Source: a virus
Taxonomy: Duplodnaviria; Heunggongvirae; Uroviricota; Caudoviricetes
DNA length: 31,179 nucleotides
Virus record (IMG/VR): IMGVR_UViG_2579779052_000007
Direction: 5' to 3' (one strand)
The position numbers and the translations under genes were made by a program. This document shows positions 1-30,276 of the stretch, one piece after another. Every line of letters starts with the position of its first letter. Within the stretch, counting starts at the first letter, position 1. The notes below the pieces were generated by a model. The model saw only the letters and a list, made by a program, of their open reading frames with translations, was not told the DNA's origin and did no database searches.

Positions 1-260
1 GCATCCAACGCCATTCATGGCCATATCAATGATTTTCTGGTGCGTACCGGGTTGAGAAGCGGTGTAAGTGAACTGCAGTTGCCATGTTTTACGGCAGTGA
101 GAGCAGAGATAGCGCTGATGTCCGGCAGTGCTTTTGCCGTTACGCACCACCCCGTCAGTAGCTGAACAGGAGGGACAGCTGATAGAAACAGAAGCCACTG
201 GAGCACCTCAAAAACACCATCATACACTAAATCAGTAAGTTGGCAGCATCACCTGGTGAG

Positions 261-680
261 CTATGATGCGTTTTGTGCTTTCTTTTTACGGATTTCTTCG
301 TAGATCATATTGTAATACTGTTTTTTCTCTTCAAGAGTTTTTAATAATTTATCCGCTTCACTTTCTGGCAGTTCGTCTAAGAGATCTAAAAAAATACGTT
401 GTCGTGGCGTTAGAACCCTTGTTTCATAACTGGAGGCTGTGTTCGTTGATGATGAAACGATACCATCCATCCATCCCCGGGGTAACCCAAAGGACTCTTC
501 GATAATCTCCACCATATCATCAGCGATCCGTTTTTTTCCCTTTTTCCCCTCTGGGTACAACATTCTTGATACATAAGAAGGCTCGCGCCCGATCTTTCTG
601 GCCACGTTAACCGCTTTACCATCGCATTTCTCATCACGAATTTTGATGAGTTGCTGTCGTCTAAATTCATATTTGTCCAT
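261..680 (-). CDS. Phage repressor-like HTH DNA-binding protein (CI/RacR/DicA-like)
   Basis: 139-aa ORF with an N-terminal HTH-like segment (KAVNVARKIGREPSYVSRM); divergent from a Cro-like gene across an operator-bearing intergenic region. Confidence 0.6.
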   Translation of the reverse strand: MDKYEFRRQQLIKIRDEKCDGKAVNVARKIGREPSYVSRMLYPEGKKGKKRIADDMVEIIEESFGLPRGWMDGIVSSSTNTASSYETRVLTPRQRIFLDLLDELPESEADKLLKTLEEKKQYYNMIYEEIRKKKAQNAS

Positions 681-716
681 AGGTAAATAATAGATGCGAT
701 TACCGCAAGGTAAACA

Positions 717-756
717 ACCTGTGGGTATTGACTTTTGTTTACCTGTGGGTATTCTT
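717..756 (+). promoter_or_regulatory. Operator/promoter region between repressor and cro-like gene
   Basis: Two direct copies of ACCTGTGGGTAT (717-728 and 741-752); -35-like TTGACT at 728-733 and -10-like TATTCT at 750-755 with a 16-nt spacer; AAGGAG RBS precedes the ATG at 781. Confidence 0.4.
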
Positions 757-780
757 TGCTGTGTTTACTAAGGAGTAGCT

Positions 781-1062
781 ATGGAAGAATTAAGAATATT
801 TCTCAATTCTCTTTCGTCAGATGAACAGCGTATGTTTGCATGCGAGTGTGGTACCAGCATCGGTTATCTAAGAAAGGCATTGAGTAAAGGTCAAGTGTTA
901 GGGGCATCGTTATGTGTCCTTATTGAGCGAGCCAGTAATGGTGAAGTTACACGTCAGCAACTAAGGCCTTTTGATTGGATGAATATTTGGCCCGAGCTGG
1001 AAGATACCAAAACGTTAACACAACCACTTTCTAGGAGCTTGATTCATGAAAATCAAGCATGA
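781..1062 (+). CDS. Cro-like / YdaS-family HTH regulator
   Basis: 93-aa ORF divergent from the repressor gene, with an AAGGAG RBS; position and size match the Cro/YdaS slot of Rac-type immunity regions. Confidence 0.6.
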   Translation: MEELRIFLNSLSSDEQRMFACECGTSIGYLRKALSKGQVLGASLCVLIERASNGEVTRQQLRPFDWMNIWPELEDTKTLTQPLSRSLIHENQA

Positions 1063-1471
1063 ACACATCCGCATGGCGATGAATGCCTGGGCGCGTCCTG
1101 ATGGCGAAAAAGTTCCAGCAGCTGGAATAACCCAGGCTTATTTTGAGTTGGGTATGACGTTCCCGGAACTGTATGACGACAGCCATCCGGAAGCCCTGGC
1201 TCGCAATACCCAGAAAATTTTCCGCTGGGTAGAGAAAGACACCCCTGATGCTGTTGAAAAAATGCAGGCTCTGTTACCGGCGATCGAAAAGGCGATGCCG
1301 CCTTTGCTGGTGGCCCGTATGCGCAGCCACAGTTCTGAATATTACCGTGAGATCGTCGAACGGAGGGATCGGCTGGTGAAGGATGTCGATGATTTTGTTG
1401 CGTCAGCGGTTGTTTTGTATGACCAGATGAATCGCGGCGGCCCGGCAGGGAATGCTGTGGTGATGCACTAA
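1046..1471 (+). CDS. YdaT-like protein (CII functional analogue family)
   Basis: 141-aa ORF immediately downstream of and overlapping the Cro-like gene; AGGAG RBS; synteny with racR-ydaS-ydaT. Confidence 0.5.
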   Translation: MKIKHEHIRMAMNAWARPDGEKVPAAGITQAYFELGMTFPELYDDSHPEALARNTQKIFRWVEKDTPDAVEKMQALLPAIEKAMPPLLVARMRSHSSEYYREIVERRDRLVKDVDDFVASAVVLYDQMNRGGPAGNAVVMH

Positions 1472-1493
1472 AAGCACGGTGTTCGGGGGTTTT

Positions 1494-2456
1494 ATGAGCA
1501 GCAAGCTTCATGGTCTTGTCTGGGAAGGGTGCGCCTTCACCGGCATGATCTTATCCAGGGTGGCGGTTATGGCCCGTCTTGCAGACTACAGCAATGACGA
1601 GGGCGTGTCATGGCCTGCCATTGAAACTATCCGGCGTCAGATCGGTGCAAGAAGTGAATCCACAGTGAAATCGGCTATTGCAGAACTGGCGAAAGAGGGC
1701 TGGCTGACGAAGGAAGAGCGTAAGGTCGGTGGGCGTAATGTAAGCAATATCTATCGGCTTAATGTGGAAAAACTCGAAGCAGCTGCGGCGGCGGCGCGTG
1801 AGTCATATAAACCGAAAAGAAAAATTAGCCCGGCAAAAAATGACCCGTTAACAGTTGACCCGTCAAATATTGACCCCTCAACGGTTGACCCGTCAAATTT
1901 TGATGGATCAACTGTTGATAAAAAACTGCCGATTAGGGGGGCGATGATTGACCCCGATCCGTCAGTATTAAAACCTGATCCGTCAGATAAAAGATCTTCT
2001 TGTCCGGACGCTTCGCAACCGGACCCGCAGACGGCTGAACAGGATTTTTTAACCCGACACCCTGACGCGGTTGTGTTCAGTGCGAAAAAACGCCAGTGGG
2101 GAAGTCAGGAAGATTTGGTGTGCGCACAGTGGATCTGGGGACGAATCGTGAGTCTTTACGAGCAGGCGGCCAGCTATGATGGCGAGATCACTAGACCGAA
2201 AGAACCCAACTGGACAGCATGGGCCAATGACGTTCGCACAATGCGGATGCTGGATGGCAGAACTCACAGACAAATTTGTGAAATGTTTGGGCGTCTCCAG
2301 CGGGATTCGTTCTGGGTAAAAAACATCATGAGTCCGGCAAAACTCCGGGAAAAATGGGATGAACTGGTTATCCGCCTGGGGCGTTCGCCTGCGCAGCGTT
2401 GCGTGAATCACATTTCTGAACCGGACACTGAAATACCGCCGGGATTCAGGGGGTGA
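1494..2456 (+). CDS. Replication initiator, lambda O-like (HTH N-terminus, iterons inside the gene)
   Basis: ATG at 1494 preferred over the in-frame GTG at 1479; N-terminal winged-helix-like region; tandem iterons embedded at 1840-1915; followed by a DnaC-like gene. Confidence 0.7.
   Translation: MSSKLHGLVWEGCAFTGMILSRVAVMARLADYSNDEGVSWPAIETIRRQIGARSESTVKSAIAELAKEGWLTKEERKVGGRNVSNIYRLNVEKLEAAAAAARESYKPKRKISPAKNDPLTVDPSNIDPSTVDPSNFDGSTVDKKLPIRGAMIDPDPSVLKPDPSDKRSSCPDASQPDPQTAEQDFLTRHPDAVVFSAKKRQWGSQEDLVCAQWIWGRIVSLYEQAASYDGEITRPKEPNWTAWANDVRTMRMLDGRTHRQICEMFGRLQRDSFWVKNIMSPAKLREKWDELVIRLGRSPAQRCVNHISEPDTEIPPGFRG
1840..1915 (+). repeat. Origin iterons: about five tandem 15-bp repeats built on palindromic TTGACCCGTCAA
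   Basis: TGACCCGTTAACAG / TTGACCCGTCAAATA / TTGACCCCTCAACGG / TTGACCCGTCAAATT / TTGATGGATCAACTG in register; further TGATCCGTCAG repeats and an A-rich stretch follow to about 1995. Confidence 0.6.
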
Positions 2457-2462
2457 CGTGTC

Positions 2463-3209
2463 ATGAAAAACATTGCGGCAGTTGGGGTTCTTGAACGTAT
2501 TCGCAGACTTGCACCACAGGGGTCGGTTCCACCGTACCGGACGGTGGAGGAGTGGCGGGAATGGCAACTTGCTGAAGGACGAAAACGCAGCGAGGAGATT
2601 AACCGCCAGAATCGCCAGTTGCGGGTGGAAAAAATCCTGAATCGTTCGGGCATCCAGCCTCTGCACAGCAAATGCTCGTTTGCAAATTATCAGGTGCAGA
2701 ACGACGGGCAAAAATACGCGCTGAGCCAGGCCAAATCCATAGCTGACGAACTGATGACCGGGTGCACGAATTTTGTGTTCAGCGGTAAAACCGGCACCGG
2801 GAAAAATCACCTTGCAGCGGCGATGGGCAACCGGCTGATGGTGAAGGGGCGCAGCGTGATTATCGTCACCGTGTCTGACGTCATGAGCGTGTTGCATGAC
2901 AGCTACGACAACGGCAAATCCGGGGAAAAATTTTTACAGGAGCTTTGCGGGGTTGATTTGCTGGTCCTGGATGAAATAGGCGTTCAGCGGGAGACGAAAA
3001 ACGAGCAGGTGGTATTGCACCAGATAATTGATCGCCGGACAGCATCACTGTGCAGTGTCGGGATGTTAACAAACCTGAATCATGCCGCAATGAGTACGCT
3101 TCTTGGTGAGAGGATTATGGACCGCATGACCATGAACGGTGGTCGATGGGTGACGTTTAACTGGGATAGCTGGCGTCCAAATGTCAGCAATATGAGGGTT
3201 GTGAAGTAA
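2463..3209 (+). CDS. DnaC-like replicative helicase loader (IstB-like AAA+ ATPase; lambda P analogue)
   Basis: Walker A GKTGTGKNHLAAA and Walker B LLVLDEIG motifs; start codon 7 nt after the O-like stop; GGGGGTGA RBS. Confidence 0.8.
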   Translation: MKNIAAVGVLERIRRLAPQGSVPPYRTVEEWREWQLAEGRKRSEEINRQNRQLRVEKILNRSGIQPLHSKCSFANYQVQNDGQKYALSQAKSIADELMTGCTNFVFSGKTGTGKNHLAAAMGNRLMVKGRSVIIVTVSDVMSVLHDSYDNGKSGEKFLQELCGVDLLVLDEIGVQRETKNEQVVLHQIIDRRTASLCSVGMLTNLNHAAMSTLLGERIMDRMTMNGGRWVTFNWDSWRPNVSNMRVVK

Positions 3210-3230
3210 TTTTGTCCGGAGGAAATTTTA

Positions 3231-4001
3231 ATGGAAACCGTATCTGACGCACTGAAAGCACTGAAAAAAGCCTCTTCACATGTGGTGGCAGCTCGCCTTG
3301 GAATCAGTCGTGAAGAGGCTGTCAACGAGCTGTGGGAACTCAAAAGAAAAGGCGTCGTTGATAAAACTGGTCACACCTGGTTTCTGGCTGGCGAAGGTGA
3401 ATCCCGGGTAACCGAAGAGCGGCCAGTAAAATCTGAAGCACAGGATATGCTGACCGGGGAGGTCGAACAAAAAGTTACCGCAGACATGATGATTGAGTTT
3501 ATCGGTCAGGATGGGGCTAAAACGTGTGAGGAACTGGCGGGGAAGTTCGGTGTCAGTACTCGCAAGGTTGCTTCCACGCTGGCGGTGGTAACCGCAACGG
3601 GGCGGCTGGCACGCGTTAATCAGAACGGTAAATTTCGTTACTGCATGCCGGGCGATAATTTACCAGCAGAGCCGAAAGCCGCGCTGGTAACGGAAAGTGA
3701 TGGTAAGGCCTTTCCTCAGCCAGCAGGTGCTGCGTTACCAGTCCGGGAAGCCGCAACACAGGAAGAAATTAAAACAGAAACTGTGGCGGACATTGTGCAG
3801 CCGTTGCCATCGTTTACCGAAACGCAAGCAGATGAGCTGATTTTTCCGTCCCTTCGCAGGGCAAACCTGGCGCTGCGCAGGGCGAAAAGTGATGTTCAGA
3901 AGTGGGAGCGAGTCTGCGCCGCGCTGCGGGAGCTGAACAAGCACCGGGATATTGTTCGACAGATTACTGATTCTTCCCGCCGTGTTGTATCGGAAAAGTG
4001 A
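3231..4001 (+). CDS. Hypothetical phage protein
   Basis: 256-aa ORF with a GGAGG RBS in the early operon; no motif recognised. Confidence 0.4.
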   Translation: METVSDALKALKKASSHVVAARLGISREEAVNELWELKRKGVVDKTGHTWFLAGEGESRVTEERPVKSEAQDMLTGEVEQKVTADMMIEFIGQDGAKTCEELAGKFGVSTRKVASTLAVVTATGRLARVNQNGKFRYCMPGDNLPAEPKAALVTESDGKAFPQPAGAALPVREAATQEEIKTETVADIVQPLPSFTETQADELIFPSLRRANLALRRAKSDVQKWERVCAALRELNKHRDIVRQITDSSRRVVSEK

Positions 4002-4016
4002 TTGCCGGAGGCGCTT

Positions 4017-4442
4017 ATGGCAAAAGTATTTACACAAGAAGAGCGGGAAAAAATTAAAGGGCAGGTTGTTGAACTTGTACGTCTGAGCGGTCGCGAGACG
4101 TTGCGGCAACTGGAAGCCAGGACAGGTGCGACAAGATATCTGATGAGTGTTCTCGCCAGAGAGCTGGTTGCCAGTGGCGATGTATACAACTCTGGTTACG
4201 GGTTATTCCCGTCTGAACAGGCGCGTAAGGACTGGCAAAATGCTCGCAAAAAACTCTCAAGGGCAAAGGTGAAGAAACCTGCAGTGGTTGATCCGGACCT
4301 TATCTGGTCGTTACCAGACGGCGAAATACGCCGCTACGACAGGCGCCTGAATATAATCTGTCGCGAGTGCCGGAAGAGCGAAGCTATGCAGCGTGTACTG
4401 GCATTTTATCAAGGAAATGTTAGGTATTTTAGACGTTACTAG
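4017..4442 (+). CDS. Hypothetical phage protein
   Basis: GGAGG RBS before the ATG at 4017 (the track ORF begins at an upstream TTG at 4002); basic C-terminus. Confidence 0.4.
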   Translation: MAKVFTQEEREKIKGQVVELVRLSGRETLRQLEARTGATRYLMSVLARELVASGDVYNSGYGLFPSEQARKDWQNARKKLSRAKVKKPAVVDPDLIWSLPDGEIRRYDRRLNIICRECRKSEAMQRVLAFYQGNVRYFRRY

Positions 4443-4595
4443 ATTAAAGAGCATTAGTTCAGATGTGAATTGACATTTTCATGGCGCAGGGTAGAGCCAG
4501 CGTGGTTGTCCGCTTTGCGTCAAAACCAGATATTACCAGATTTAGACATATATTCCCGATAGACCTGCTCTGATGCTACACTCTGTGCTATTTTC

Positions 4596-5282
4596 ATGAC
4601 CCCAATAAAAATATTTATGACTATTGCTGATTTCAAACGGCCTAAATTGGAGCTCCCAAACGGGGCAAACAAACTACTACTGCACTCTTGCTGTGCTCCA
4701 TGTTCCGGTGAAGTGATGGAGGCGCTTCAGGCCTCGGGAATCGACTACACCATCTTTTTCTACAACCCGAACATTCATCCTCAGAAAGAGTATTTAATTC
4801 GTAAGGATGAAAATATTCGCTTTGCTGAACAACACGGCGTGCCGTTTATCGATGCTGATTACGACACCGACAACTGGTTTGAACGTGCCAAAGGAATGGA
4901 ATGGGAGCCTGAGAGGGGGATCCGTTGTACCATGTGTTTTGACATGCGTTTTGAGCGGACAGCGTTGTACGCTGCTGAAAATGGTTTCAGTGTGATCAGC
5001 AGTTCACTGGGCATTTCACGCTGGAAAAATATGCAGCAGGTTAACGAGTGTGGGCGGCGAGCTGTTGCGCATTATCCGGGTATGGTGTACTGGGATTATA
5101 ACTGGCGCAAGCAGGGCGGCTCGTCCCGTATGATTGAAATCAGCAAGCGCGAAAAATTCTATCAGCAGGAATATTGTGGCTGTGTGTATTCTCTGCGCGA
5201 TACCAATCTACACCGCAAATCTCAGGGACGCCCTCTTATCAAAATTGGCCAACTCCACTACGGAAAAGAAGAGAAGGAGTGA
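4596..5282 (+). CDS. queH: Epoxyqueuosine reductase QueH-like protein (DUF208 family)
   Basis: N-terminal [11 protein letters not shown] and C-terminal EYCGCVYS cysteine motifs as remembered for QueH; about 228 aa; stand-alone gene with its own upstream intergenic region. Confidence 0.6.
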
Positions 5283-5519
5283 TTTTATGGATCACCTTTC
5301 TGATTGATTTCATATTGGCGAGGTGACGTGAGTTAAGTAGAATGGCTGCGGGTGCTTGAGGCTATCTGTCTCAGGCATGAACACTGAAAGGCAGATAGAG
5401 AAAAGCCCCAGTTAACATTTCGCGTCCTGCAAGACGCTTAACATTAATCTGAGGCCCAATCTATGTCTCACAAATGTAGGTTAGCCTCTTACGTGCCGAA
5501 AGGCAAGGGGAAGCAGGCT

Positions 5520-5675
5520 ATGAAGCAGCAAAAGGCGATGTTAATCGCCCTGATCGTCATCTGTTTAACCGTCATAGTGACGGCACTGGTAACGAGGAAA
5601 GACCTCTGCGAGGTACGACTCCGAACCGGCCAGACGGAGGTCGCTGTCTTCACAGCTTACGAACCTGAGGAGTAA
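5520..5675 (+). CDS. hokD: Hok/Gef-family type I toxin (HokD/RelF-like)
   Basis: 51-aa translation MKQQKAMLIALIVICLTVIVTALVTRKDLCEVRLRTGQTEVAVFTAYEPEE matches the Hok/Gef signature; an in-frame upstream start at 5463 gives a mok-like leader ORF. Confidence 0.75.
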   Translation: MKQQKAMLIALIVICLTVIVTALVTRKDLCEVRLRTGQTEVAVFTAYEPEE

Positions 5676-5743
5676 GAGACCTGGCGGGGGAGAAATCCCT
5701 CGCCACCTCTGATGTGTCAGGCATCCTCAACGCACCCGCACTT

Positions 5744-5771
5744 AACCCGCTTCGGCGGGTTTTGTTTTTTT
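5744..5771 (+). terminator. Rho-independent terminator after the hok gene
   Basis: AACCCGC-TTCG-GCGGGTT hairpin followed by a T-rich run. Confidence 0.6.
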
Positions 5772-5842
5772 CTGGCATTCTGGTTTACAATTCGCACGTC
5801 AGCCTGAACACCTGACACCTGCTGCGCCAGCAGAGAAAACAG

Positions 5843-6115
5843 ATGGCGCACAAAACCAAATTTCACAATTCTGATACCGACCTTGCCATCCGGCATGGGC
5901 GGCGTTCACACGCATTTAAAACCGACTGGTACCAACACCCACCATGTACTGAAGAACAGGCCGAATGGCTAATTCATAACTACCGCAGACGCGGATACGA
6001 GATTAAGAAAGCCCTCAGCCTCGATTATCGTCACTGGATAATCTCCGTCAGGCTTCCTTACTCTGAACGCCCACCGCGTCCGTCCCGCACATTCCAGCAA
6101 CGCATCTGGAGGTAA
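5843..6115 (+). CDS. Hypothetical small protein (in the position of rem in Qin)
   Basis: 90-aa ORF whose stop is 1 nt before the next gene's GTG; its 3' end supplies a GGAGG RBS. Confidence 0.35.
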   Translation: MAHKTKFHNSDTDLAIRHGRRSHAFKTDWYQHPPCTEEQAEWLIHNYRRRGYEIKKALSLDYRHWIISVRLPYSERPPRPSRTFQQRIWR

Positions 6116-6116
6116 C

Positions 6117-7172
6117 GTGCGGGTATTACTTCGACCTGTTCTGGTACCGGAACTCGGGCTGGTGATCGTTAAGCCGGGCCGTGAATCCATGCCGGTATTC
6201 CACAATACCCGGGTACTGGTGGAGCCGGAACCGAAAAGCATGCGTAATCTGCCGTCCGGGGTCGTTCCTGCCGTTCGCCAGCCGCTGGCGGAGGATAAAT
6301 CATTACTGCCATTTTTCAGCGACGAACGAGTGATTCGTGCTGCTGGTGGCGCTGGCGCATTGTCTGACTGGTTACTGCGCCATGTTAAATCCTGCCAGTG
6401 GCCACACGGCGATTATCACCACAGTGAAACCGTCATTCACCGTTATGGTACCGGCGCAATGGTGTTGTGCTGGCACTGCGACAACCAGCTGCGCGACCAG
6501 ACCTCCGAATCACTCGGGCAACTTGCTCACCAAAACCTGTCTGCATGGATGATTGACGTCATACGCCATGCAATGAATGGCTCGCAGGAACGGGAATTAT
6601 CGCTGGCTGAATTATCCTGGTGGGCGGTCCGCAATCAGGTGGCGGACGCGCTACCGGAAGCGGTATTACGTCGTTCGCTGGGGTTGCGTGCGGAAAAAAT
6701 CCGCTCAATGTACCGTGAAAGCGACATCGTACCGGGAGAGCAGACCGCCACCAGCATACTGAAGCAGCGCACAAAAAATCTTGCGCCGCTGCCTCACGCC
6801 CACCAGCAAACCCCGCCACAGGAAAAGACGGTGGTCAGCATTGCCGTTGATCCGGAGTCACCGGCTCAGTATCTCCAGCGCCAGAAATCACAACGGGAAG
6901 AGATGCCTGTATACACGCGTTGGGTAAAAACGCAGAAATGCATGACGTGTGGCAATCAGGCAGATGATCCGCATCACATCATTGGTCATGGACTGGGAGG
7001 GATGGGAACAAAGGCTGATGATTTGTTTGTTATTCCGCTGTGCCGTAAATGCCATAGCGAACTACACGCCGGGGTAAAAGATTTTGAAGAAAAACACGGC
7101 AGCCAGCTGTTGTTGCTGATTCGTTTTTTAATGCACGCGAGAAATTCGGGTGTTCTGAAGTGGAAAGCATAA
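6117..7172 (+). CDS. DUF968 (YdfU-like) nin-region protein with a C-terminal Cys/His cluster
   Basis: 351-aa ORF with GTG start; C-terminal CMTCGN...HHIIGH...CRKCHSELH; synteny hok-rem-ydfU-rusA-Q as in Qin. Confidence 0.5.
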   Translation: MRVLLRPVLVPELGLVIVKPGRESMPVFHNTRVLVEPEPKSMRNLPSGVVPAVRQPLAEDKSLLPFFSDERVIRAAGGAGALSDWLLRHVKSCQWPHGDYHHSETVIHRYGTGAMVLCWHCDNQLRDQTSESLGQLAHQNLSAWMIDVIRHAMNGSQERELSLAELSWWAVRNQVADALPEAVLRRSLGLRAEKIRSMYRESDIVPGEQTATSILKQRTKNLAPLPHAHQQTPPQEKTVVSIAVDPESPAQYLQRQKSQREEMPVYTRWVKTQKCMTCGNQADDPHHIIGHGLGGMGTKADDLFVIPLCRKCHSELHAGVKDFEEKHGSQLLLLIRFLMHARNSGVLKWKA

Positions 7173-7538
7173 ATGACTGAACGCATAGAATTTGTTTTGC
7201 CTTACCCGCCAACGGTGAACACTTACTGGCGACGTCGTGGCAGCACATATTTTGTATCAAAAGTCGGTGAGCGTTATCGCCGTGATGTGGCGCTTATTGT
7301 TCGCCAGCAGCAACTGAAATTAAACCTGTCCGGAAGGCCGGCAATAGAAATTATTGCAGAGCCACCGGATAAGCGTCGTCGTGACCTGGACAATATCCTG
7401 AAGGCACCACTGGATGTACTGACGCATGCGGGGCTGCTCATAGACGACGAGCAGTTTGATGAAATTAATATTGTGCGCGGTCAGCTTGTTCCTGGTGGGC
7501 GGTTGGGGATAAAAATCACAGAACTGGAGTACGCATGA
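7173..7538 (+). CDS. rusA: Holliday junction resolvase RusA
   Basis: 121 aa with RusA-like motifs (RRRDLDN, catalytic Asp region, GGRL); positioned just before the Q-like gene. Confidence 0.8.
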   Translation: MTERIEFVLPYPPTVNTYWRRRGSTYFVSKVGERYRRDVALIVRQQQLKLNLSGRPAIEIIAEPPDKRRRDLDNILKAPLDVLTHAGLLIDDEQFDEINIVRGQLVPGGRLGIKITELEYA

Positions 7539-8224
7539 ATAACCAGTATTTACAGTTTGTTCGTGAGCAACTCATGATTGCCACCGCCGATTTGAGTGGA
7601 TCAACAAAAGGGCAGCTTGAGGCCTGGCAGGAGAATGCCATGTTTGATACAGGGCGTTACAGGCGTAAAAAAATCCGGTACCGCGATGAAGTGACTGGAA
7701 AAATGATAACGCGGGATAATCCACCAATCCCGGGAAAGCAATCGCTGGCGAAGGGGGTGTCAATTCCTCTCGTCAGTCCGGTTGAGTTTTCGACATCATC
7801 GTGGCGGCGGGCTGTTCTGTCTCTTGAAGAACATCATAAAGCCTGGTTGTTGTGGTGTTACAGCGGGAGTATTTGTTGGGAATATCAGATCGCGATAACG
7901 CAGTGGGTGTGGAATGAATTTAAAACCCGGTACGGCACCAGAAAAATTGCAGGGAAAACGCAGGAGCGCGTGAAGAAGTTGATCTGGCTGGCGGCACAGG
8001 ATGTCAGAGGATGGATTACCGGGTGTGAGGTCTACCAGAGACAGGAGCTTGCCAGACTGTGTGGAGTTAAGCCTGATAACTGGAGCCATAATTATGCGAA
8101 CTACTGGCGTGAGATGTGCGATATTTTTAAGAGTCTCGATAGAGAATCTGTGATTTGCACCGTGAAAATAAGAGCGCAACAAAAAGCGACTTTTTCACGA
8201 CGAGATATTGCAAAAGTCAATTAA
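7535..8224 (+). CDS. Putative late antiterminator Q-like protein
   Basis: 229-aa ORF overlapping the rusA stop (ATGA); position after rusA and before a short terminated leader; not lambda-Q-like by eye, so family unconfirmed. Confidence 0.45.
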   Translation: MNNQYLQFVREQLMIATADLSGSTKGQLEAWQENAMFDTGRYRRKKIRYRDEVTGKMITRDNPPIPGKQSLAKGVSIPLVSPVEFSTSSWRRAVLSLEEHHKAWLLWCYSGSICWEYQIAITQWVWNEFKTRYGTRKIAGKTQERVKKLIWLAAQDVRGWITGCEVYQRQELARLCGVKPDNWSHNYANYWREMCDIFKSLDRESVICTVKIRAQQKATFSRRDIAKVN

Positions 8225-8292
8225 ATAGCGTACGTTTCGTATAAATCTGATATTTTGCCGATTTTGTACGCGATGGCAAAGTAAGAAAAAAA

Positions 8293-8315
8293 CTGCCGTC
8301 AGGCGGTTTTTTTTT
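8293..8315 (+). terminator. Rho-independent terminator about 70 nt after Q (tR'-like)
   Basis: CTGCC-GTCA-GGCGG hairpin followed by T9. Confidence 0.45.
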
Positions 8316-8437
8316 ATGCCCAAAATCGCGTCAGTACAGTAAACACGCTGGTGGTTGCGAATACGGGTCTTTCAGCTTGCTGGCTTTTTCGACAAGAGTT
8401 ATTGGTATGTCACGTTAACCGGAAAAAGGAAAAAGAC

Positions 8438-8635
8438 ATGCTAAAACAGCAGGATATGACAGAAACCGCCAGAGTGGTGTTTAATGAATTAAGCGTTACC
8501 GAACCGGCGACAGTCGGGGAGATAGCGCAGAATACTTACCTTTCACGCGAACGCTGCCAGTTAATACTGACCCAGCTGGTTATGGCGGGTCTGGCAGACT
8601 ATCAGTTCGGTTGTTACAGACGCCTTCAGTCCTGA
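8438..8635 (+). CDS. Hypothetical small protein
   Basis: 65-aa ORF from an internal ATG of the track ORF 8351-8635; followed by a hairpin plus T-run at about 8620-8648. Confidence 0.3.
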   Translation: MLKQQDMTETARVVFNELSVTEPATVGEIAQNTYLSRERCQLILTQLVMAGLADYQFGCYRRLQS

Positions 8636-8785
8636 AGGCTTTTTTATTTGTGGTAAATGGGCGGCTGGTGGGTGTTAGGGGCACCCACCAGCCATCTGCT
8701 CATGCGTTGGGTTCACAAGCAAACCTCAGGCCCACTGCTTTGCGCAAAAGCAGAATGAGCCTATCAGAGACAGGCTTAATGATCC

Positions 8786-9835
8786 ATGCTTAATACTGTA
8801 AAAATATCCAGTTGTGAGTTAATCAACGCCGACTGCCTGGAATTTATCCGGTCGTTACCCGAAAATTCTGTTGACCTGATAGTCACGGACCCGCCGTACT
8901 TTAAAGTGAAGCCTGAGGGCTGGGATAACCAGTGGAAGGGCGACGATGATTACCTGAAGTGGCTGGACCAGTGTCTGGCGCAGTTCTGGCGGGTGCTGAA
9001 ACCTGTCGGAAGTCTTTACCTGTTCTGTGGTCATCGCCTGGCATCTGATATCGAAATCATGATGCGTGAACGCTTCAGTGTGCTGAACCATATTATCTGG
9101 GCGAAGCCGTCCGGACGCTGGAACGGATGCAACAAGGAAAGCCTGCGGGCGTATTTCCCCGCCACAGAGCGCATTCTGTTCGCGGAACATTATCAGGGGC
9201 CGTATCGTCCGAAAGATGCCGGGTATGCGGCGAAGGGCAGTGCACTGAAACAGCATGTGATGGCCCCGCTGATTTCTTACTTTCGTGATGCGCGCGCTGC
9301 CCTGGGGATAACGGCAAAACAGATTGCAGATGCCACAGGAAAGAAAAACATGGTGTCGCACTGGTTCAGTGCCAGTCAGTGGCAGCTACCGAACGAAAGC
9401 GATTATCTGAAATTACAGTCGCTGTTTGCCCGGGTGGCAGAAGAGAAACATCAGCGCGGTGAACTGGAAAAGCCCCACCACCAGCTGGTGGATACGTATA
9501 CGTCACTGAACCGGCAGTATGTGGAGCTGCAGAGTGAATATAAGCATCTGCGGCGGTATTTTGGTGTGACGGCGCAGGTGCCGTACACGGATGTGTGGAC
9601 ACATAAACCGGTGCAGTTCTATCCCGGGAAACATCCGTGCGAAAAACCGGCAGAAATGCTGCAGCAGATAATCAGCGCAAGCAGTCGTCCGGGTGACCTG
9701 GTTGCAGATTTTTTTATGGGCTCAGGTTCAACGGTAAAAGCGGCACTGGCGCTTGGGCGTCGTGCGATTGGCGTTGAACTGGAGACCGGACGTTTTGAGC
9801 AGACAGTCAGGGAAGTTCAGGATTTAATCGTTTGA
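8786..9835 (+). CDS. Orphan DNA methyltransferase (N6-adenine/N4-cytosine family, DPPY motif)
   Basis: DPPY catalytic motif near the N-terminus (VTDPPYF) and a C-terminal AdoMet-binding-like FFMGSGST; no adjacent restriction endonuclease. Confidence 0.8.
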   Translation: MLNTVKISSCELINADCLEFIRSLPENSVDLIVTDPPYFKVKPEGWDNQWKGDDDYLKWLDQCLAQFWRVLKPVGSLYLFCGHRLASDIEIMMRERFSVLNHIIWAKPSGRWNGCNKESLRAYFPATERILFAEHYQGPYRPKDAGYAAKGSALKQHVMAPLISYFRDARAALGITAKQIADATGKKNMVSHWFSASQWQLPNESDYLKLQSLFARVAEEKHQRGELEKPHHQLVDTYTSLNRQYVELQSEYKHLRRYFGVTAQVPYTDVWTHKPVQFYPGKHPCEKPAEMLQQIISASSRPGDLVADFFMGSGSTVKAALALGRRAIGVELETGRFEQTVREVQDLIV

Positions 9836-9884
9836 AACGGATGAGATTGCAGAATTAATTACGCACCATTATTATTCTGCTCCC

Positions 9885-9960
9885 GGCCCTTTAGCTCAGT
9901 GGTGAGAGCGAGCGACTCATAATCGCCAGGTCGCTGGTTCAAATCCAGCAAGGGCCACCA
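9885..9960 (+). tRNA. ileZ: tRNA-Ile2 (anticodon CAU, lysidine type)
   Basis: 76 nt ending in CCA; anticodon loop CTCATAA; near-identical by eye to the remembered E. coli tRNA-Ile2. Confidence 0.8.
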
Positions 9961-9967
9961 TCACATA

Positions 9968-10044
9968 CCGCCATTAGCTCATCAGGAAAGAGCGCCAGCT
10001 TTCGAAGCTGGTTGCGCGGAGTTCGGGTCCCCGAAGGCGGTCCA
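9968..10044 (+). tRNA. argN: tRNA-Arg (anticodon UCG)
   Basis: 77 nt with CCA; D-arm AGCTCATCAGG...GAGC; anticodon loop TTTCGAA between a CCAGC/GCTGG stem. Confidence 0.65.
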
Positions 10045-10057
10045 TTATCTGTATCCT

Positions 10058-10134
10058 GCGTTGTTAGCTCAGCCGGACAGAGCAATTGCCTTCTAAGCAA
10101 TCGGTCACTGGTTCGAATCCAGTACAACGCGCCA
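10058..10134 (+). tRNA. argO: tRNA-Arg (anticodon UCU)
   Basis: 77 nt with CCA; anticodon loop CTTCTAA; T-loop GGTTCGAATCC; acceptor stem GCGTTGT/ACAACGC. Confidence 0.8.
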
Positions 10135-10149
10135 CACTTATTTTCCCTG

Positions 10150-10172
10150 GCTCGCTTTTGCGGGCTTTTTTT
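10150..10172 (+). terminator. Rho-independent terminator after the tRNA cluster
   Basis: GCTCGC-TTTT-GCGGGC hairpin followed by T7. Confidence 0.5.
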
Positions 10173-10178
10173 AAATGT

Positions 10179-10392
10179 CTCACAATTCAGGCGGTTGACT
10201 GTTGTCTGGTTTGCGGGGAGTTTGTTAAAAGAAACTGGCATGGTGAATCCCCCTGTGCGGAGGGGCAATCAGCGAGTAGGTATATGGGATAATCGCGGAT
10301 TCAGGTGCTGGTACTGAATTCACCGGGAGGCACCCAGCACCATGCAATGGCACATAGCGCCACTCTCCAGCCCCTCTCCGGAGGGGCTTTTC
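10179..10392 (+). ncRNA. Candidate small RNA / late-promoter-terminator unit, copy 1
   Basis: Conserved CTCACAATTCAG box, TTGACT at 10195-10200, flanking inverted repeat GCATGGTG (10238-10245) / CACCATGC (10338-10345), terminator CCCCTC-TCCG-GAGGGG plus T-run at 10371-10392; no convincing ORF. Confidence 0.35.
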
Positions 10393-10646
10393 TGTGCCGG
10401 ATACATCACAGTTTCTGGAACCTTAGGTACTACAGTATCAGTCAGGGTGCTATATTTTCAGATGTGATGAAAGCCTGTCAGCAGGCAGGGCGTATCGGAA
10501 ATGACCCAGTAGAGAAAACGTTGACTCAGATACCGGTGCTGAGTTACCGGGAAACCGGCATCACATGACCGCTATCCTTCCAGGCCCATCCGCTCCGGTG
10601 GGCCTTTTTACTGCAGAAAACAGGTTCCCCGTTAAATGCTATGTTG

Positions 10647-10880
10647 CTCACAATTCAGTAAGTTGACAGTTGCCTGTCAGACTGGGCATTTGTTAAAAAA
10701 ATTTCGCATGGTGAATCCCCCTGAGCGGAGGGGCGACTGGTGACGGTATAATCTCTGATTATCAAAACGAGAATGACGCGGGTTTAGTGGCACCGGGCTG
10801 AACTCACCGGGAGGCACCCGGCACCATGTGCATGATGATACAGATACGCGGCTTTAGCCCCTCTCCGGAGGGGTTTTCTT
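10647..10880 (+). ncRNA. Candidate small RNA / late-promoter-terminator unit, copy 2 (paralogue of 10179-10392)
   Basis: Same architecture: CTCACAATTCAG, TTGACA at 10663-10668, GCATGGTG (10706-10713) / CACCATG (10822-10828), TATAAT at 10747-10752, terminator at 10858-10880. Confidence 0.35.
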
Positions 10881-11108
10881 GTGGGCAAAAAAAGCCCGCG
10901 CTGGGAGACGCGGGCGGCAAGGAATAAACAATAAAACGTGAAGTAATATTTCAGCTGGCGAATAATATCCGACAGTAATCACTCTGCGCAATAGCGCGGC
11001 CTTTTTCGTATTGCGGGCTGTTGTCTCTCTTCTGCCATTGTCCTGTAACTTCCGGACTTCAGCCCGCTCCTCATTTTACTCACAATATTATCCCGGCCGG
11101 GAGGATTC

Positions 11109-12962
11109 ATGGCATTTAAACACTATGATGTTGTCAGGGCGGCGTCGCCGTCAGATCTTGCGGAAAAGCTGACACATAAACTGAAAGAGGGCTGGCAGCC
11201 GTTTGGTAGTCCGGTGGCCATAACCCCTTATACCCTGATGCAGGCGATTGCAGCAGAAGGTGATGTGGTCGTCAGTGGTGCAACTGAGCCGGAGTGGTAC
11301 TACGTCATCGTACTGGCCGGGCAGTCCAATGCCATGGCTTACGGTGAAGGGCTTCCGCTTCCGGATTCATACGATGCGCCCCATCCGCGCATTAAGCAAC
11401 TGGCCCGTCGTAACACAGTGACTCCCGGTGGTGAAGTATGCGTATTTAACGACATCATTCCTGCTGACCATTGTCTGCATGATGTTCAGGATATGAGTAC
11501 GATTAACCATCCCCGGGCTGACCTGAGCAAAGGGCAGTACGGCTGTGTCGGACAGGGCTTACATATTGCCAAAAAACTGCTTCCGTATATCCCTAATAAT
11601 GCGGGGATCCTGCTGGTACCATGCTGTCGTGGTGGTTCGGCATTCACCCAGGGCGCGGAGGGGACATTCAGTGCGGACACGGGGGCCAGCCAGGATTCGG
11701 CACGCTGGGGTGTGGGTAAACCGTTATATCAGGATCTGCTTTTCCGCACGAAGGCAGCATTGCAGAAAAACCCGAAAAACGTTTTGCTGGCGATATGCTG
11801 GATGCAGGGGGAATTCGATATGACGAATGCCAGTTACGCCCAGCAGCCAGCAGCATTTCTTGCAATGGTACAGCAGTTCCGTGCTGACCTTACCGGGCTG
11901 GCGGCGCAGTGCCATGGCGGCAGTGCTGCAGTTGTACCGTGGATTTGTGGCGACACGACGTATTACTGGCAAAACACATACGGCACACAGTATGACTCCG
12001 TCTACGGCGCGTACAAAAACAGGGAGAGCGACAACGTTTTCTTTGTGCCGTTCATGACCGACGGTAACGGCAACAACACGCCCACCAACTTACCGGCAGA
12101 AGACCCGGATATTGCTGATGCAGGTTATTACGGCGCGCAATCCCGTAGTAATGGTAATTGGGTATCGTCAAATCGTCCGACACATTTCAGTTCATGGGCG
12201 CGCAGGGGCATTATTTCGGATCGCCTGGCAACCGCTATTCTGAACGCAGTTGGTCGAACCAGCGCCTTCATCAGCGGTACCGCACCGGAGATTAAACCCT
12301 CGCCCGGCGGCGACACTCCATCGGGGCCGTCTGATGGTGACACATCCGTTCGTACAGTCTCCCTGCTGCCGACAGCCGGAGAGGCTGCTGCGCAGGGCTG
12401 GACCATCACCGGCGGCAGTGTTGCGCTGGAAGATGGTGTGTTTAAGGTTACCAAGCAGAGCAATAAAACCTGGTCCCTGATGCATCCGGTGGATGACGCA
12501 GTCTCCCTGCTGACACGGGGTGGCAGACTGAGCTGTAAGTTTCGACTGTCAGGCGCACTGACCAACAACCAGTTCGGTCTGGGAATTTATCTGTATACCG
12601 ATGTAGCGTTACCTGACGTCGTGGCGATGACCGGGACTGGTAACCCGTTCCTGATGTCGTTCTTCACCCAGACCACAGACGGCAAACTGAATCTGATGCA
12701 TCACAAGAAAGCAGGAAACACAAAGTTGGGCGAGTTCGGGAATTACAGTAACGACTGGCAGACGCTGGAGCTGGTGTTCACCGCCAGCAGTGCCACGGTT
12801 ACTCCGAAACTGAATGGAGTGGCTGGCCCGGCATTCCAGGTCATAAAAGACAGTCTGACACTGGGGCTGAATGCACTGACGCTGACGGATATTACCAAAA
12901 ATGCAACGTATGGCGTTGAGATAGAAAGTCTGGTGCTGGAAATAAATAGTCCTGCAGCGTAA
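11109..12962 (+). CDS. nanS-p: NanS-p-type sialate O-acetylesterase (SGNH/SASA domain with C-terminal carbohydrate-binding-like region)
   Basis: 617 aa; GGAGG RBS; VIVLAGQSNAMAY motif of the SGNH/SASA esterase family; sits downstream of the phage tRNA cluster as the esterase gene does in Stx phages. Confidence 0.75.
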   Translation: MAFKHYDVVRAASPSDLAEKLTHKLKEGWQPFGSPVAITPYTLMQAIAAEGDVVVSGATEPEWYYVIVLAGQSNAMAYGEGLPLPDSYDAPHPRIKQLARRNTVTPGGEVCVFNDIIPADHCLHDVQDMSTINHPRADLSKGQYGCVGQGLHIAKKLLPYIPNNAGILLVPCCRGGSAFTQGAEGTFSADTGASQDSARWGVGKPLYQDLLFRTKAALQKNPKNVLLAICWMQGEFDMTNASYAQQPAAFLAMVQQFRADLTGLAAQCHGGSAAVVPWICGDTTYYWQNTYGTQYDSVYGAYKNRESDNVFFVPFMTDGNGNNTPTNLPAEDPDIADAGYYGAQSRSNGNWVSSNRPTHFSSWARRGIISDRLATAILNAVGRTSAFISGTAPEIKPSPGGDTPSGPSDGDTSVRTVSLLPTAGEAAAQGWTITGGSVALEDGVFKVTKQSNKTWSLMHPVDDAVSLLTRGGRLSCKFRLSGALTNNQFGLGIYLYTDVALPDVVAMTGTGNPFLMSFFTQTTDGKLNLMHHKKAGNTKLGEFGNYSNDWQTLELVFTASSATVTPKLNGVAGPAFQVIKDSLTLGLNALTLTDITKNATYGVEIESLVLEINSPAA

Positions 12963-12985
12963 GGAAGAACAGGAGAGCAAAACAG

Positions 12986-13453
12986 ATGCTTAAGACAAAC
13001 AGCCTCCGGAAGGGCATGATTCATGGGTGTCGCTGGTGTCAGGCCAACCCGGAAAAATTCACCATTTTCGTGGAGAGCGGCAACATTGAAACGACCGGAG
13101 AAACGCCCTCGTTTGTTTACCGCTATCAGATGGTGATGTTTGTCATGGATTACGCCGGGGAGCTGGACGACCTCACGCTGCCGCTACTGGCGTGGTTATC
13201 CGAAAATCAGCCGCAATTGTTGCTTAATCCGGAGCGTAATCAGGACATCAAATTCTCCGCCGTTATCAATGACGATGACAGCGCCGATCTCCTGTTTACG
13301 CTCCCTCTGCGGGAACGCGTTCGCATCACGCGCAGCAGTCAGGGGGCACCGCAGGCAGAACACCTGCAGGAGCCAAAACCCCGTCTGCCATCTTCCGAAG
13401 GCGACTGGTCGCATGTATTCCAGGATGTGACGTGGGGTGAAAGCGATGGATAA
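12986..13453 (+). CDS. R: P2 gpR-like tail completion protein
   Basis: 155 aa, the same length as P2 R, with recognisable similarity (LLAWL.ENQP segment); precedes an S-like gene. Confidence 0.65.
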   Translation: MLKTNSLRKGMIHGCRWCQANPEKFTIFVESGNIETTGETPSFVYRYQMVMFVMDYAGELDDLTLPLLAWLSENQPQLLLNPERNQDIKFSAVINDDDSADLLFTLPLRERVRITRSSQGAPQAEHLQEPKPRLPSSEGDWSHVFQDVTWGESDG

Positions 13454-14081
13454 GGCATTCACCCGCGTGGATGAAACCTTTGAGGCTATCCGCGACAGCC
13501 TGAATCAGCAGGCCATCAATAACATCGCCAGAAAGCTGGCACAGGATTTACGCCGCGCCCAGCAGGCGCGTATCCGGTCACAGAAAGCGCCGGACGGGAC
13601 CGCGTGGACACCACGCAGACGCCGCGTAACCCGGATACAGGAGCGCATTCGCTTTATCTGGAATAACGAAGCACGCACGCTGAAAAACTGGCATCACGAC
13701 ACGGGGAAATACGGGCGAACCATTACCGGGTGGGATGAGGATAAAAACAATATCCGCACGTTTTACCGGGATGACATCGACCGCTTTCTGGAAATACGCA
13801 CCCGGCGCATCAACCAGGACAGCACAAAGCGCGTCCCCATGTTCGTAAAACTGCGCACCGCCCGCTACCTGAAAGCCCGTGCAGATGCTTCCGGTGTGAC
13901 GGTGGGTTACAGCGGCGTGGCCGCACGTATTGCCCGCGTTCATCAGTTCGGTGAGCGCGATCAGGTTGCGCCGGGCATTTTCACCGATTACCCGGTACGT
14001 GAGCTGTTGGGCATCAGTCAGGCAGATGAACGCCTGATTTATAACACGGTGCTGGGCCGGATTGCGGAGGCTGTACGGTGA
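13446..14081 (+). CDS. S: P2 gpS-like tail completion / virion morphogenesis protein
   Basis: Overlaps the R stop and the V start (GTGA); start is either ATG 13446 or GTG 13437. Confidence 0.65.
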   Translation: MDKAFTRVDETFEAIRDSLNQQAINNIARKLAQDLRRAQQARIRSQKAPDGTAWTPRRRRVTRIQERIRFIWNNEARTLKNWHHDTGKYGRTITGWDEDKNNIRTFYRDDIDRFLEIRTRRINQDSTKRVPMFVKLRTARYLKARADASGVTVGYSGVAARIARVHQFGERDQVAPGIFTDYPVRELLGISQADERLIYNTVLGRIAEAVR

Positions 14082-14659
14082 GCGCAGAACTCATGCGACT
14101 GCTGAGCAACATCATCCGCACTGGGATCATCTCTGAAGTTGATGAGAAGTCCTGGTGCGTGCGCGTTCGCAGCGGCGAACTGGAAACAGGCTGGTTGCGC
14201 TGGAACACCACGCGCGCGGGAGCCTTCAATGTGTGGCTGCCGCCATCACCCGGCGAACAGGTGGTAATTGCCTGCATTGGCGGCAACCCGGAAACCGCCA
14301 TGATAATTGGCAGCCTGTGGAGTGATGCCAATCCGGCCCCCGGCAAAAGCCTGAAAGAAATCGTGGTCAGCGCGCCGGATGGCGCGGTGTTCCGCTACGA
14401 CGCGGACGCAGGCGCACTGAGCGCCAGCGGCATGAAAACGGCCACCCTGCAGGCATCCGTCAGTGTGACACTGGACACGCCCGTCGTGGAATGCACAGAC
14501 CTTCTGAGAACGGCGACGCTTGACGTCACAAAAGGGGGAAAGATGAGCGGCAATATCACGCACAGCGGCGGCAATTTCACCTCAAACGGCATCACAGTGC
14601 ATACGCATAAACACGGTGGCGTGAAAGGTGGCAGCGATTCGACAGGAGGCCCGCAGTGA
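14078..14659 (+). CDS. V: Baseplate spike protein, P2 gpV-like
   Basis: GTG start overlapping the S stop; GGAGG RBS; glycine-rich C-terminus typical of gpV spikes. Confidence 0.8.
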   Translation: MSAELMRLLSNIIRTGIISEVDEKSWCVRVRSGELETGWLRWNTTRAGAFNVWLPPSPGEQVVIACIGGNPETAMIIGSLWSDANPAPGKSLKEIVVSAPDGAVFRYDADAGALSASGMKTATLQASVSVTLDTPVVECTDLLRTATLDVTKGGKMSGNITHSGGNFTSNGITVHTHKHGGVKGGSDSTGGPQ

Positions 14660-15006
14660 CAACCCGCTACACAGGAATGAACCCGGACGGAACGGGAAAC
14701 CTGAACGATATGGAGCATCTGAAACAGTCAGTCAGGGACATCCTGACCACCCCGCTGGCAAGCCGGGTTATGCGACGGGAATATGGCAGCCTTGTGCCCG
14801 ATTTAATTGACGAACCCATGAATAACACCACTCGTCTGCAATGCATGAGTGCTGCCGTGATTGCGCTGACACGATGGGAACCCCGCATTGCCCTGGACGC
14901 CATCGACGTTGTCTGGAAGGCAGGAGGCCGCGCCGGGGTGACGCTGTCGGGCACTGTCATGCAGACCATGCAGAATGTTGAATTAACCATCACGCTGAGG
15001 GAGTAA
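14656..15006 (+). CDS. W: Baseplate protein, P2 gpW-like (gp25 family)
   Basis: 116 aa; GTG start overlapping the V stop; AGGAGG RBS; P2 gene order. Confidence 0.8.
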   Translation: MTTRYTGMNPDGTGNLNDMEHLKQSVRDILTTPLASRVMRREYGSLVPDLIDEPMNNTTRLQCMSAAVIALTRWEPRIALDAIDVVWKAGGRAGVTLSGTVMQTMQNVELTITLRE

Positions 15007-15009
15007 ATC

Positions 15010-15906: not shown

Positions 15907-16429
15907 TTCACTGTTACCACCATCAGCCAGCAGTTTCATGCGTTGTGCCGAAGCTGTCGGAACGCGCATTACAGACATCCCGGTAGACCTCAACACGCTG
16001 TGGTCGCCGGACACCTGCCCGGTGCACCTGCTGCCTTATCTCGCCTGGGCATTTTCCGTTGACCGCTGGGATCGCAACTGGCCGGAAGAGACAAAACGAC
16101 AGGTGATTCGTGATGCATGGCTGATACACCGACACAAAGGGACCATCAGCGCACTGCGCAGGGCCATTGAGCCGCTGGGATACCTCATTCGCGTGTCTGA
16201 GTGGTGGGAGTTCGGCGGAGAACCGGGAACATTTACCGTTGAAGTCGGCACACTGGACAGTGGCGTGACGGAGGAAATGTATCTGGAAATGGAGCGGTTG
16301 ATTGCTGATGCCCGTCCGGTCAGCCGCCACATGACAGGGCTGAATATCATTCAGGAAATTCCGGGGGATATTTTTGCAGCGGCGGCAACTCATGACGGTG
16401 AAGTTATTACCATTTATCCGGACGATTAA
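15899..16429 (+). CDS. I: Baseplate/tail protein, P2 gpI-like
   Basis: 176 aa, the same length as P2 I; start overlaps the J stop (ATGAGTAA). Confidence 0.8.
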
Positions 16430-16431
16430 GC

Positions 16432-19142: not shown

Positions 19143-19185
19143 AGAGAAAAAGCCATCGATTGAAATATAGATGGCTTTATGTACT

Positions 19186-19758: not shown

Positions 19759-19914
19759 GATAATCTCCTTAATTATTATTTCAGACCACACATATTATAA
19801 GGTTAAGAGATTATAAAATCCTGTTGTTTGTTATTCAAAAACAATTTTCTGAGAAGGACATACAACAGCAAGTCGCCAGTCACCTTCATCAGGAAATTGG
19901 CGACATACGTTAAA

Positions 19915-20409: not shown

Positions 20410-20415
20410 GACTCC

Positions 20416-30264: not shown

Positions 30265-30276
30265 TCGGGAAGAAAG

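Follow-up and report, generated by a model that had tools for sequence, protein, structure and literature searches.

A mobile queH cassette in lambdoid prophages of Escherichia coli: a probable cobalamin-independent epoxyqueuosine reductase carried alongside QueG

Two unrelated enzymes are known to act at the last step of queuosine (Q) synthesis, in which epoxyqueuosine (oQ) in transfer RNA (tRNA) is converted to Q. QueG (YjeS) is a cobalamin- and [4Fe-4S]-containing enzyme (PMC4646009, PMC5175355), and PMC4646009, citing Frey et al. 1988, describes this last step in E. coli as cobamide-dependent. QueH, represented structurally by the Thermotoga maritima enzyme (PF02677, COG1636; Protein Data Bank (PDB) entries 7lc5, 7lc7 and 9deu), belongs to a different family that does not use cobalamin, and in Staphylococcus aureus QueG and QueH have been described as redundant enzymes with different cofactors (PMC13443448). 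Here, we analyze a QueH-family gene in a Caudoviricetes record, IMGVR_UViG_2579779052_000007, the whole 31,179-nucleotide (nt) stretch of which is referred to below as the window. We find this gene to be intact, mobile and under purifying selection, and to coexist with queG in every queH-positive E. coli genome among those searched.

The original prediction, made from the nucleotide sequence alone, had drawn attention to an open reading frame (ORF) of 228 amino acids (aa) at 4596-5282 on the forward strand that carries the motifs HSCCAPCS and EYCGCVYS. The ORF is uninterrupted and both motifs are as described; the start, by contrast, had been set 21 nt too far upstream. The identical gene in RefSeq (WP_000150294.1, 221 aa) begins at ATG 4617. 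When seven copies with unrelated surroundings are aligned, among them two Rac-like prophages, a prophage of the Qin-like type, phage HannyBb and two IncF plasmids (from Salmonella and Klebsiella), all seven have this ATG, and the codon at 4596 is ATT in three of them. As 4617 is both the RefSeq start and the only start conserved across contexts, it is probably the true start of queH, and positions 4596-4616 are most likely 5′-untranslated region (5′-UTR) rather than coding sequence. The stretch from 4443 to 4616 is an intergenic/promoter region with no coding sequence. Residue numbers below follow the 221-aa protein that starts at 4617, and the two parts of the reading frame are as follows:

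4617-5282 (+): queH coding sequence, 221 aa plus stop; Pfam, PDB 7lc5 and fold matches, RefSeq start and name, start kept in seven of seven contexts.
4596-4616 (+): in-frame upstream extension, probably 5′-UTR; ATG replaced by ATT in three of seven contexts, and unused by RefSeq.

Membership of the QueH/DUF208 family, which the original prediction had proposed from the cysteine motifs and suggested checking with a profile search, is supported by profile, sequence and fold alike. The Pfam QueH profile PF02677 matches essentially end to end (profile positions 1-174 of 175), with an E value of 1.1e-65 and a score of 221.5 bits, where the curated cut-off is 23.5. NCBIfam has no model that matches the product at E <= 0.01, although PGAP names the protein QueH. 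When the PDB is searched by sequence, the sole solved relatives are the T. maritima QueH structures (7lc5 and variants), with an E value of 8e-22 over residues 27-203. An AlphaFold2 model of the product, for which an alignment of 38 sequences at 35-86% identity was used, has a mean predicted local distance difference test score (pLDDT) of 95.4 and a predicted template modeling score (pTM) of 0.91, and matches the QueH fold with its adenine-nucleotide alpha-hydrolase-like core. Specifically, the top five Foldseek matches in the PDB are all T. maritima QueH entries (target-normalised template modeling (TM) scores of 0.90-0.92, root-mean-square deviations (rmsd) of 1.2-2.0 Å), with a TM score of 0.92 and an rmsd of 1.2 Å against 7lc5 itself, and the next matches are the PP-loop-type tRNA enzymes TtuA, TilS and LarE, with TM scores of only 0.3-0.4.

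The residues expected to bind the metal center are also in place. A HMMER search of 1.84 billion cluster representatives recovered 4,775 relatives at E <= 0.001, the best 150 of which were used to score residue conservation, with cysteine invariance being judged on 54 full-length diverse representatives. Six cysteines (C25, C26, C104, C107, C187 and C189) are invariant in these 54 sequences, further invariant residues are N52, Y59, R62, E99, R103, R111, K137 and Q184, and the window protein has every one of them; the 38-sequence alignment used for the model bears out the same invariant residues. Position 29 is Cys in 94, Asp in three and Leu in one of the 98 scorable sequences. The window protein has Cys at this position, which is the majority state of the family, with the crystallised T. 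maritima enzyme (Asp13) as the exception. The predicted ligand cysteines are thus C25, C26, C29, C104, C107, C187 and C189, arranged in CCxP[C/D], CxxC and CGC motifs, and they align with C9, C10, D13 and the CxxC and CGC motifs of the T. maritima protein. In work by Li and colleagues in 2021, the motif cysteines of QueH are reported to be ligands of a [4Fe-4S] cluster and of an iron next to it. Because C9S and D13N mutants of T. maritima QueH have been deposited in the PDB, the depositors appear to have regarded these positions, equivalent to C25 and C29 here, as functionally important.

The window protein therefore resembles T. maritima QueH in its full-length profile match, its fold and its CC, CxxC and CGC pattern, and the reaction expected of it would be the same, namely the conversion of oQ34-tRNA to Q34-tRNA. 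The two differ in that they are just 30% identical and, beyond the exchange of Asp13 for Cys, the window protein is longer by about 19 residues at the N-terminus and has a basic tail of about 20 residues at the C-terminus (features that proteobacterial orthologues share), and its gene lies on mobile elements rather than at a core chromosomal locus. On this evidence, the window gene is a genuine and intact queH, and its product is predicted, with good probability, to be a cobalamin-independent epoxyqueuosine reductase.

A second comparison is provided by the chromosomal QueH proteins of Enterobacterales and their relatives. The window protein is 79-86% identical, over nearly its full length, to QueH of Erwinia, Gibbsiella, Photorhabdus, Providencia, Proteus, Ewingella, Serratia, Dickeya and Pantoea, with identical motifs, and QueH activity of the window protein may be presumed from this identity. 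The Providencia orthologue (84% identical) lies in a core dapE-tmcA-purC-bamC-dapA neighbourhood without phage genes, with the tmcA/DUF441 genes on one side and an ECF-transporter/purC-bamC-dapA block on the other, and the Photorhabdus orthologue also has a non-phage context. Among 80 species-representative loci with a 74-100% identical gene, lambdoid neighbours are found at the E. albertii locus only. In contrast to the mobile copies, the chromosomal genes lack the upstream block of about 100 nt that is described below. The window protein is still 75-80% identical to proteins of Sphingomonas, Stenotrophomonas and Neisseriaceae, and such slow evolution of the clade is in keeping with constraint on an enzyme whose substrate is conserved.

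In E. coli, queH DNA is present in 995-1,032 of 5,426 complete genomes (roughly a fifth), usually in one copy, and all queH loci among the matches listed are annotated in RefSeq as "epoxyqueuosine reductase QueH". Alleles that are at least 99% identical occur in 707 genomes. The gene queG is present in all 5,426 of the complete genomes, and thus beside queH in every queH-positive one, in agreement with the earlier point that E. coli uses the unrelated cobalamin-dependent QueG for this reaction (PMC4646009). QueG shares its pathway step with QueH, and differs from it in having an unrelated fold and family, in its need for cobalamin, and in being encoded by a core gene that is not mobile. Because QueG is universal in E. 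coli, the prophage QueH would be an accessory, second enzyme for the step that is performed by the QueG of the host.

Three kinds of mobile element carry queH: prophages, an isolated phage and plasmids. The isolated, virion-forming phage HannyBb has the gene at 6095-6781 of its locus (L002). A tblastn search found queH on 305 plasmid records (99 from Klebsiella, 68 from Escherichia, and the remainder from other genera), 136 of which are typed as conjugative, and on two IncF plasmids (L092 7001-7669 and L093 7001-7669) the gene is solitary, standing amid insertion sequence (IS) elements, TonB fragments or fec genes. In a scan of viral contigs, all matches were E. coli prophage copies with 100% identity, and the scan is hence uninformative on more distant phage relatives. 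When the window allele is compared with five other mobile alleles by the Nei-Gojobori method, the ratio of non-synonymous to synonymous divergence (dN/dS) is 0.02-0.08, at synonymous divergence (dS) of up to 0.45; to give one example, the allele of strain TUM14759 differs from that of the window by 46 synonymous and 12 non-synonymous changes. The ORF is intact, with all motifs, in every allele examined, and queH is clearly under purifying selection. Since the mobile upstream block is common to these alleles, much of their divergence probably arose while the gene was on mobile elements.

The features upstream of the gene in the window are as follows:

4500-4616 (+): upstream block (about 100-117 nt) that moves with the ORF and makes up the left portion of the mobile cassette; common to prophage, phage and IncF plasmid copies.
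4574-4582 (+): predicted extended -10 element TGcTACACT, nearly coincident with the invariant block CTGATGCTACAC at 4570-4581.
4507-4532 (no strand): degraded palindrome TGTCCGCTTT ... AAACCAGATA, a perfect 10-bp inverted repeat in other alleles.

The upstream block is kept in Rac-like and Qin-like prophages, in phage HannyBb, and in the Salmonella and Klebsiella IncF plasmids, the other flanks of which are unrelated, and conservation among these mobile copies stops within a few bases of the queH stop codon. We found no such block before the chromosomal queH genes of Providencia and Photorhabdus, nor at 79 of the 80 species-representative loci, and we therefore reject the possibility that the block came from a chromosomal donor as the gene's native promoter. 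The simplest reading of this pattern is that a single mobile cassette, made up of the leader and the ORF, would have spread among prophages and plasmids. Within the block, CTGATGCTACAC, together with TGnTACACT, is invariant in seven of seven prophage, phage and IncF plasmid copies, and this conservation across contexts leads us to predict that TG-n-TACACT is an extended -10 promoter element; the candidate -35 element, TCCCGA at 4554-4559, is weak. The palindrome in the same block is a perfect repeat in other alleles (TGTCTGCTTT-N6-AAAGCAGACA), two of which fold at -16.5 and -18.4 kcal/mol (z -3.9 and -4.6, respectively), and in the window allele it is broken by two non-compensating substitutions, C4511 and C4526, and folds at -6.8 kcal/mol (z -0.3). 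As the allele in which it is broken is also the commonest, we assign no regulatory role to this palindrome.

Taking these observations into account, we propose that queH is an autonomous cargo cassette, in which a promoter-bearing leader of about 100 nt would precede the ORF, and which occupies an early, nin-equivalent slot in prophages and is also found on IncF plasmids. Its product would be a small iron-sulfur enzyme that converts oQ to Q at wobble position 34 of tRNA-Asp, tRNA-Asn, tRNA-His and tRNA-Tyr without cobalamin, such that a lysogen would have a second enzyme for the final step of Q synthesis, beside the cobalamin-dependent QueG that otherwise performs it. We infer both catalysis in E. 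coli and use of the predicted promoter, and upon prophage induction queH would additionally be transcribed by read-through from the early operon. E. coli depends on imported corrinoids, and for this reason the most likely benefit of such an enzyme would be that Q maturation can go on when B12 is scarce or unsuitable. Import of corrinoids by E. coli is likewise the experimental premise of PMC11841063. As a whole, the explanation that queH encodes a functional, stand-alone, cobalamin-independent oQ reductase that acts on host tRNA, travels as a mobile cassette and spares B12 seems to us a likely one. The B12-sparing rationale, taken by itself, is put forward tentatively, and we regard as rather doubtful the broader suggestion that mobile elements of Enterobacteriaceae (lambdoid prophages, at least one free temperate phage, and IncF plasmids) spread QueH into hosts that have QueG, with lysogeny or plasmid carriage shifting the oQ/Q state, and thereby the decoding of NAU and NAC codons, in B12-poor niches.

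Several points weigh against this proposal. No published experiment on this QueH protein was found in the searchable literature. The selective benefit is conjectural, because no E. coli phenotype that separates oQ from Q is known, and deletion of queG left growth unchanged in one study (PMC11841063). In terms of expression, a scan for a strict two-hexamer sigma-70 consensus returned no promoter upstream of queH, there is no obvious Shine-Dalgarno sequence before ATG 4617, and an Rfam scan returned no cobalamin riboswitch or other known regulatory RNA, and thus nothing that would tie expression to B12 status. Finally, the low dN/dS may partly reflect selection in earlier hosts and not in E. coli prophages, and high identity alone neither dates nor proves a recent capture, given how slowly the clade evolves (its identity to alphaproteobacterial proteins is still 75-80%).

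The prophage context of the cassette can be read from window positions 254-12947, which are 98.5% identical to the lambdoid prophage adjoining ompW in strain CE10. In RefSeq, the order of genes in this prophage begins with an integrase and an excisionase, followed further on by dicB and then by repressor-type regulators, a YdaT-family protein, a helix-turn-helix replication protein and a DnaC-like ATPase. It continues with DUF1627, DUF977, QueH, hokD, a hypothetical protein, DUF968, RusA and the Q antiterminator, and ends with a DNA methyltransferase, tRNA-Ile, two tRNA-Arg genes and an esterase, ahead of the lysis and head genes. queH thus lies between the replication genes and the Q antiterminator, in a nin-equivalent position, and the placement in the nin region of a prophage that had been proposed from the sequence holds. 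The genes on either side of it in the window are:

4002-4442 (+): DUF977 / Ren-like exclusion protein, left edge of the cargo slot; Pfam DUF977 E 9e-28, phrog_142 Ren-like.
5350-5761 (+): hok/sok type I toxin-antitoxin module, a unit separate from queH; Rfam sok 120.5 bits, Hok Pfam E 1.6e-22.

The DUF977 gene precedes queH in the window, in CE10, in HannyBb and in four further prophages (with alleles that are 91.8-97.9% identical). Both Rac-like (trkG side) and Qin-like prophages carry queH, and hok is usually the next gene after queH; in the window, the hok/sok unit has a promoter-like site at 5315-5343, sok at 5350-5525, the Mok/Hok frame at 5463-5675 and a terminator-like hairpin at 5744-5761. 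In the Qin prophage of strain K-12, relBE occupies the same slot upstream of hokD (L175 5347-5873). As different genes (queH or relBE) are found in the same slot, this is a variable cargo position of Rac/Qin-type lambdoid prophages. The locus is therefore similar to known lambdoid moron or nin-region cargo in that one slot, between the replication/DUF977 genes and hokD-rem-ydfU-Q, holds differing genes, and is dissimilar in that the cargo here is a predicted tRNA-modification enzyme and not a toxin-antitoxin or exclusion function. With respect to the features that characterize morons, presence at a fixed slot is variable and a conserved extended -10-like element moves with the ORF, and neither a consensus promoter nor a terminator downstream of queH was detected. 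We note also that, in Qin-like prophages (L089 5714-5899 and L090 5714-5899) and in HannyBb (L002 5856-6062), the remnant of a truncated methyltransferase gene separates the DUF977 gene from queH, which suggests that the cassette was inserted in, or displaced part of, a methyltransferase gene.

This position bears on the strongest of the alternative explanations, which we nevertheless consider unlikely, namely that QueH serves the lytic programme, either by raising the Q/oQ of host tRNA for phage translation or by disrupting a host response that uses this step. queH points in the direction of the early operon, no terminator separates it from the DUF977 gene, it is carried by the virion-forming phage HannyBb, and a 2026 preprint on Shewanella reports that queG is induced upon phage infection and that oQ gives way to Q, with effects on physiology (bioRxiv 10.64898/2026.03.05.709803). 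However, the same cassette is found on conjugative IncF plasmids, which have no lytic cycle, such that its benefit would not be specific to lysis, the cassette has its own conserved upstream element, and the lambdoid segment in the window is without lysis and structural genes of its own. Codon usage likewise gives no indication of such a role, as the NAU fraction of the Q-decoded codons does not differ between early prophage genes (0.57), late prophage genes (0.58) and flanking host genes (0.59). The more specific idea that the phage needs extra Q for its own genes is rejected, since the NAU/NAC usage of the prophage genes is the same as that of the host.

Even less probable is that queH has no current function in E. 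coli and, as a redundant passenger, is kept only by its linkage to successful prophages and plasmids. The universality of queG, the want of a known oQ-versus-Q phenotype, the decay of the upstream palindrome in the common allele and the 707 genomes with alleles at least 99% identical, as fits recent clonal spread, would all be in line with such linkage. It is opposed by the low dN/dS of 0.02-0.08 across alleles that have the mobile upstream block (for example, the 46 synonymous against 12 non-synonymous differences noted above), by an ORF that is intact in every allele examined, by the retention of all invariant residues, and by the presence of queH on three kinds of mobile element.

It had also been suggested that queH is linked to the three phage tRNA genes in the same lambdoid segment (9885-10134), and this part of the original prediction was not upheld. 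The anticodons of these tRNAs are CAU (tRNA-Ile in RefSeq, a lysidine tRNA), UCG and UCU (both Arg), and, because queuosine is confined to tRNAs with GUN anticodons (PMC9508795), none of the three would be a substrate of QueH. Other prophages with queH have tRNA-Thr and tRNA-Gly, or no tRNA gene at all, and the plasmid copies have no tRNA genes nearby. Since the anticodons are not GUN and the tRNA content varies among the prophages, the co-location of queH with these tRNAs is incidental.

The remaining alternative, which takes up the 7-deazaguanine suggestion from the same source, is that the substrate of QueH is a 7-deazaguanine modification in phage DNA or some other epoxide outside tRNA. 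It is highly improbable, and DNA modifications of the oQ type are not known. Phages do use 7-deazaguanine derivatives in their DNA (PMC6884629), and a DNA methyltransferase gene is present in the same element at 8786-9835, but the annotation of the 40.8-kb CE10 region and of four other prophage contexts shows no preQ0-synthesis gene and no FolE, QueC, QueD, QueE, QueF or DpdA/TGT-like gene, the IncF plasmid copies are solitary and have no deazaguanine partner genes, Hutinet et al. 2019 (PMC6884629) report no QueA, QueG or QueH homologues in the deazaguanine-modifying viruses they analysed, the window protein is 79-86% identical to housekeeping QueH, and PADLOC has no family that matches QueH. 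We similarly reject a role of QueH as a defence system, as there is no PADLOC-DB family match at E <= 0.001.

The identity of the gene is already known, since RefSeq names this exact protein QueH, and as annotation nothing is added here. In the searchable literature we found no paper on QueH in phages or plasmids of Enterobacteriaceae, and what goes beyond that literature is that, in E. coli and its close relatives, queH is present only on mobile elements, beside a universal B12-dependent QueG and under strong purifying selection. This combination suggests the hypothesis that these mobile elements free Q maturation from the B12 supply. If the enzyme is active in lysogens, they would provide a simple natural system for asking whether completion of oQ to Q matters, and could show whether B12 availability shapes the modification state of tRNA in the gut. 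If, in turn, mobile elements do spread QueH in the way proposed, queH would become the first gene specific to queuosine modification of tRNA to be recognised among phage cargo, because the 2019 survey reported none in the viruses analysed, and it would give a natural handle on the physiological distinction between oQ and Q. There is also a practical gap in annotation: the matching PHROGs family, phrog_3217 (E 1.7e-138), is labelled "unknown function", and its profile is truncated at the N-terminus, starting at residue 34 and thus without the first cysteine motif, HSCCAPC, and the HannyBb gene is annotated as hypothetical. Both of these phage resources under-annotate queH.

Further observations concern the surroundings of the cassette. 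Downstream of hok in the queH prophages, the conserved partners are a 90-aa ORF (5843-6115 in the window; no Pfam match, phrog_1212 of unknown function) and, after it, a gene for a DUF968/HNH-type protein (6117-7172; YdfU-like, 351 aa, phrog_96, HNH endonuclease). From 8786 to 12962, the layout resembles that of Stx phages without the toxin genes, with Q, the DNA methyltransferase, tRNA-Ile2/Arg/Arg, two copies of the small RNA family STnc100 (10209-10399 and 10677-10886) and a NanS-p-like esterase.

The window as a whole joins two types of prophage, with positions 254-12947 matching the lambdoid prophage of CE10 (98.5%) and positions 11288-31179 matching a P2-like late region in SCU-105 (98.8%), together with the host leuZ-cysT-glyW/pgsA genes beyond it. 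The two matches overlap by 1.66 kb (11288-12947), inside a shared esterase gene at 11109-12962 (SASA/DUF6645). As none of the 5,426 complete E. coli genomes covers at least 80% of 6200-31179 in one place, either two prophages have recombined in the window or the join arose in assembly. In the tail-fibre-assembly region of the P2-like prophage there is a full-length match to the Rfam family IS009 at 18907-19105 (+), with 192 bits against a gathering score of 117. Based on homology to SCU-105, this prophage also has apparent cargo of its own, a serine O-acetyltransferase and a YecA/SEC-C family protein (about 19186-19760 (-) and 27148-28287 (+)), and close to its ogr-like gene there is another Hok/Gef gene, the second in the window.

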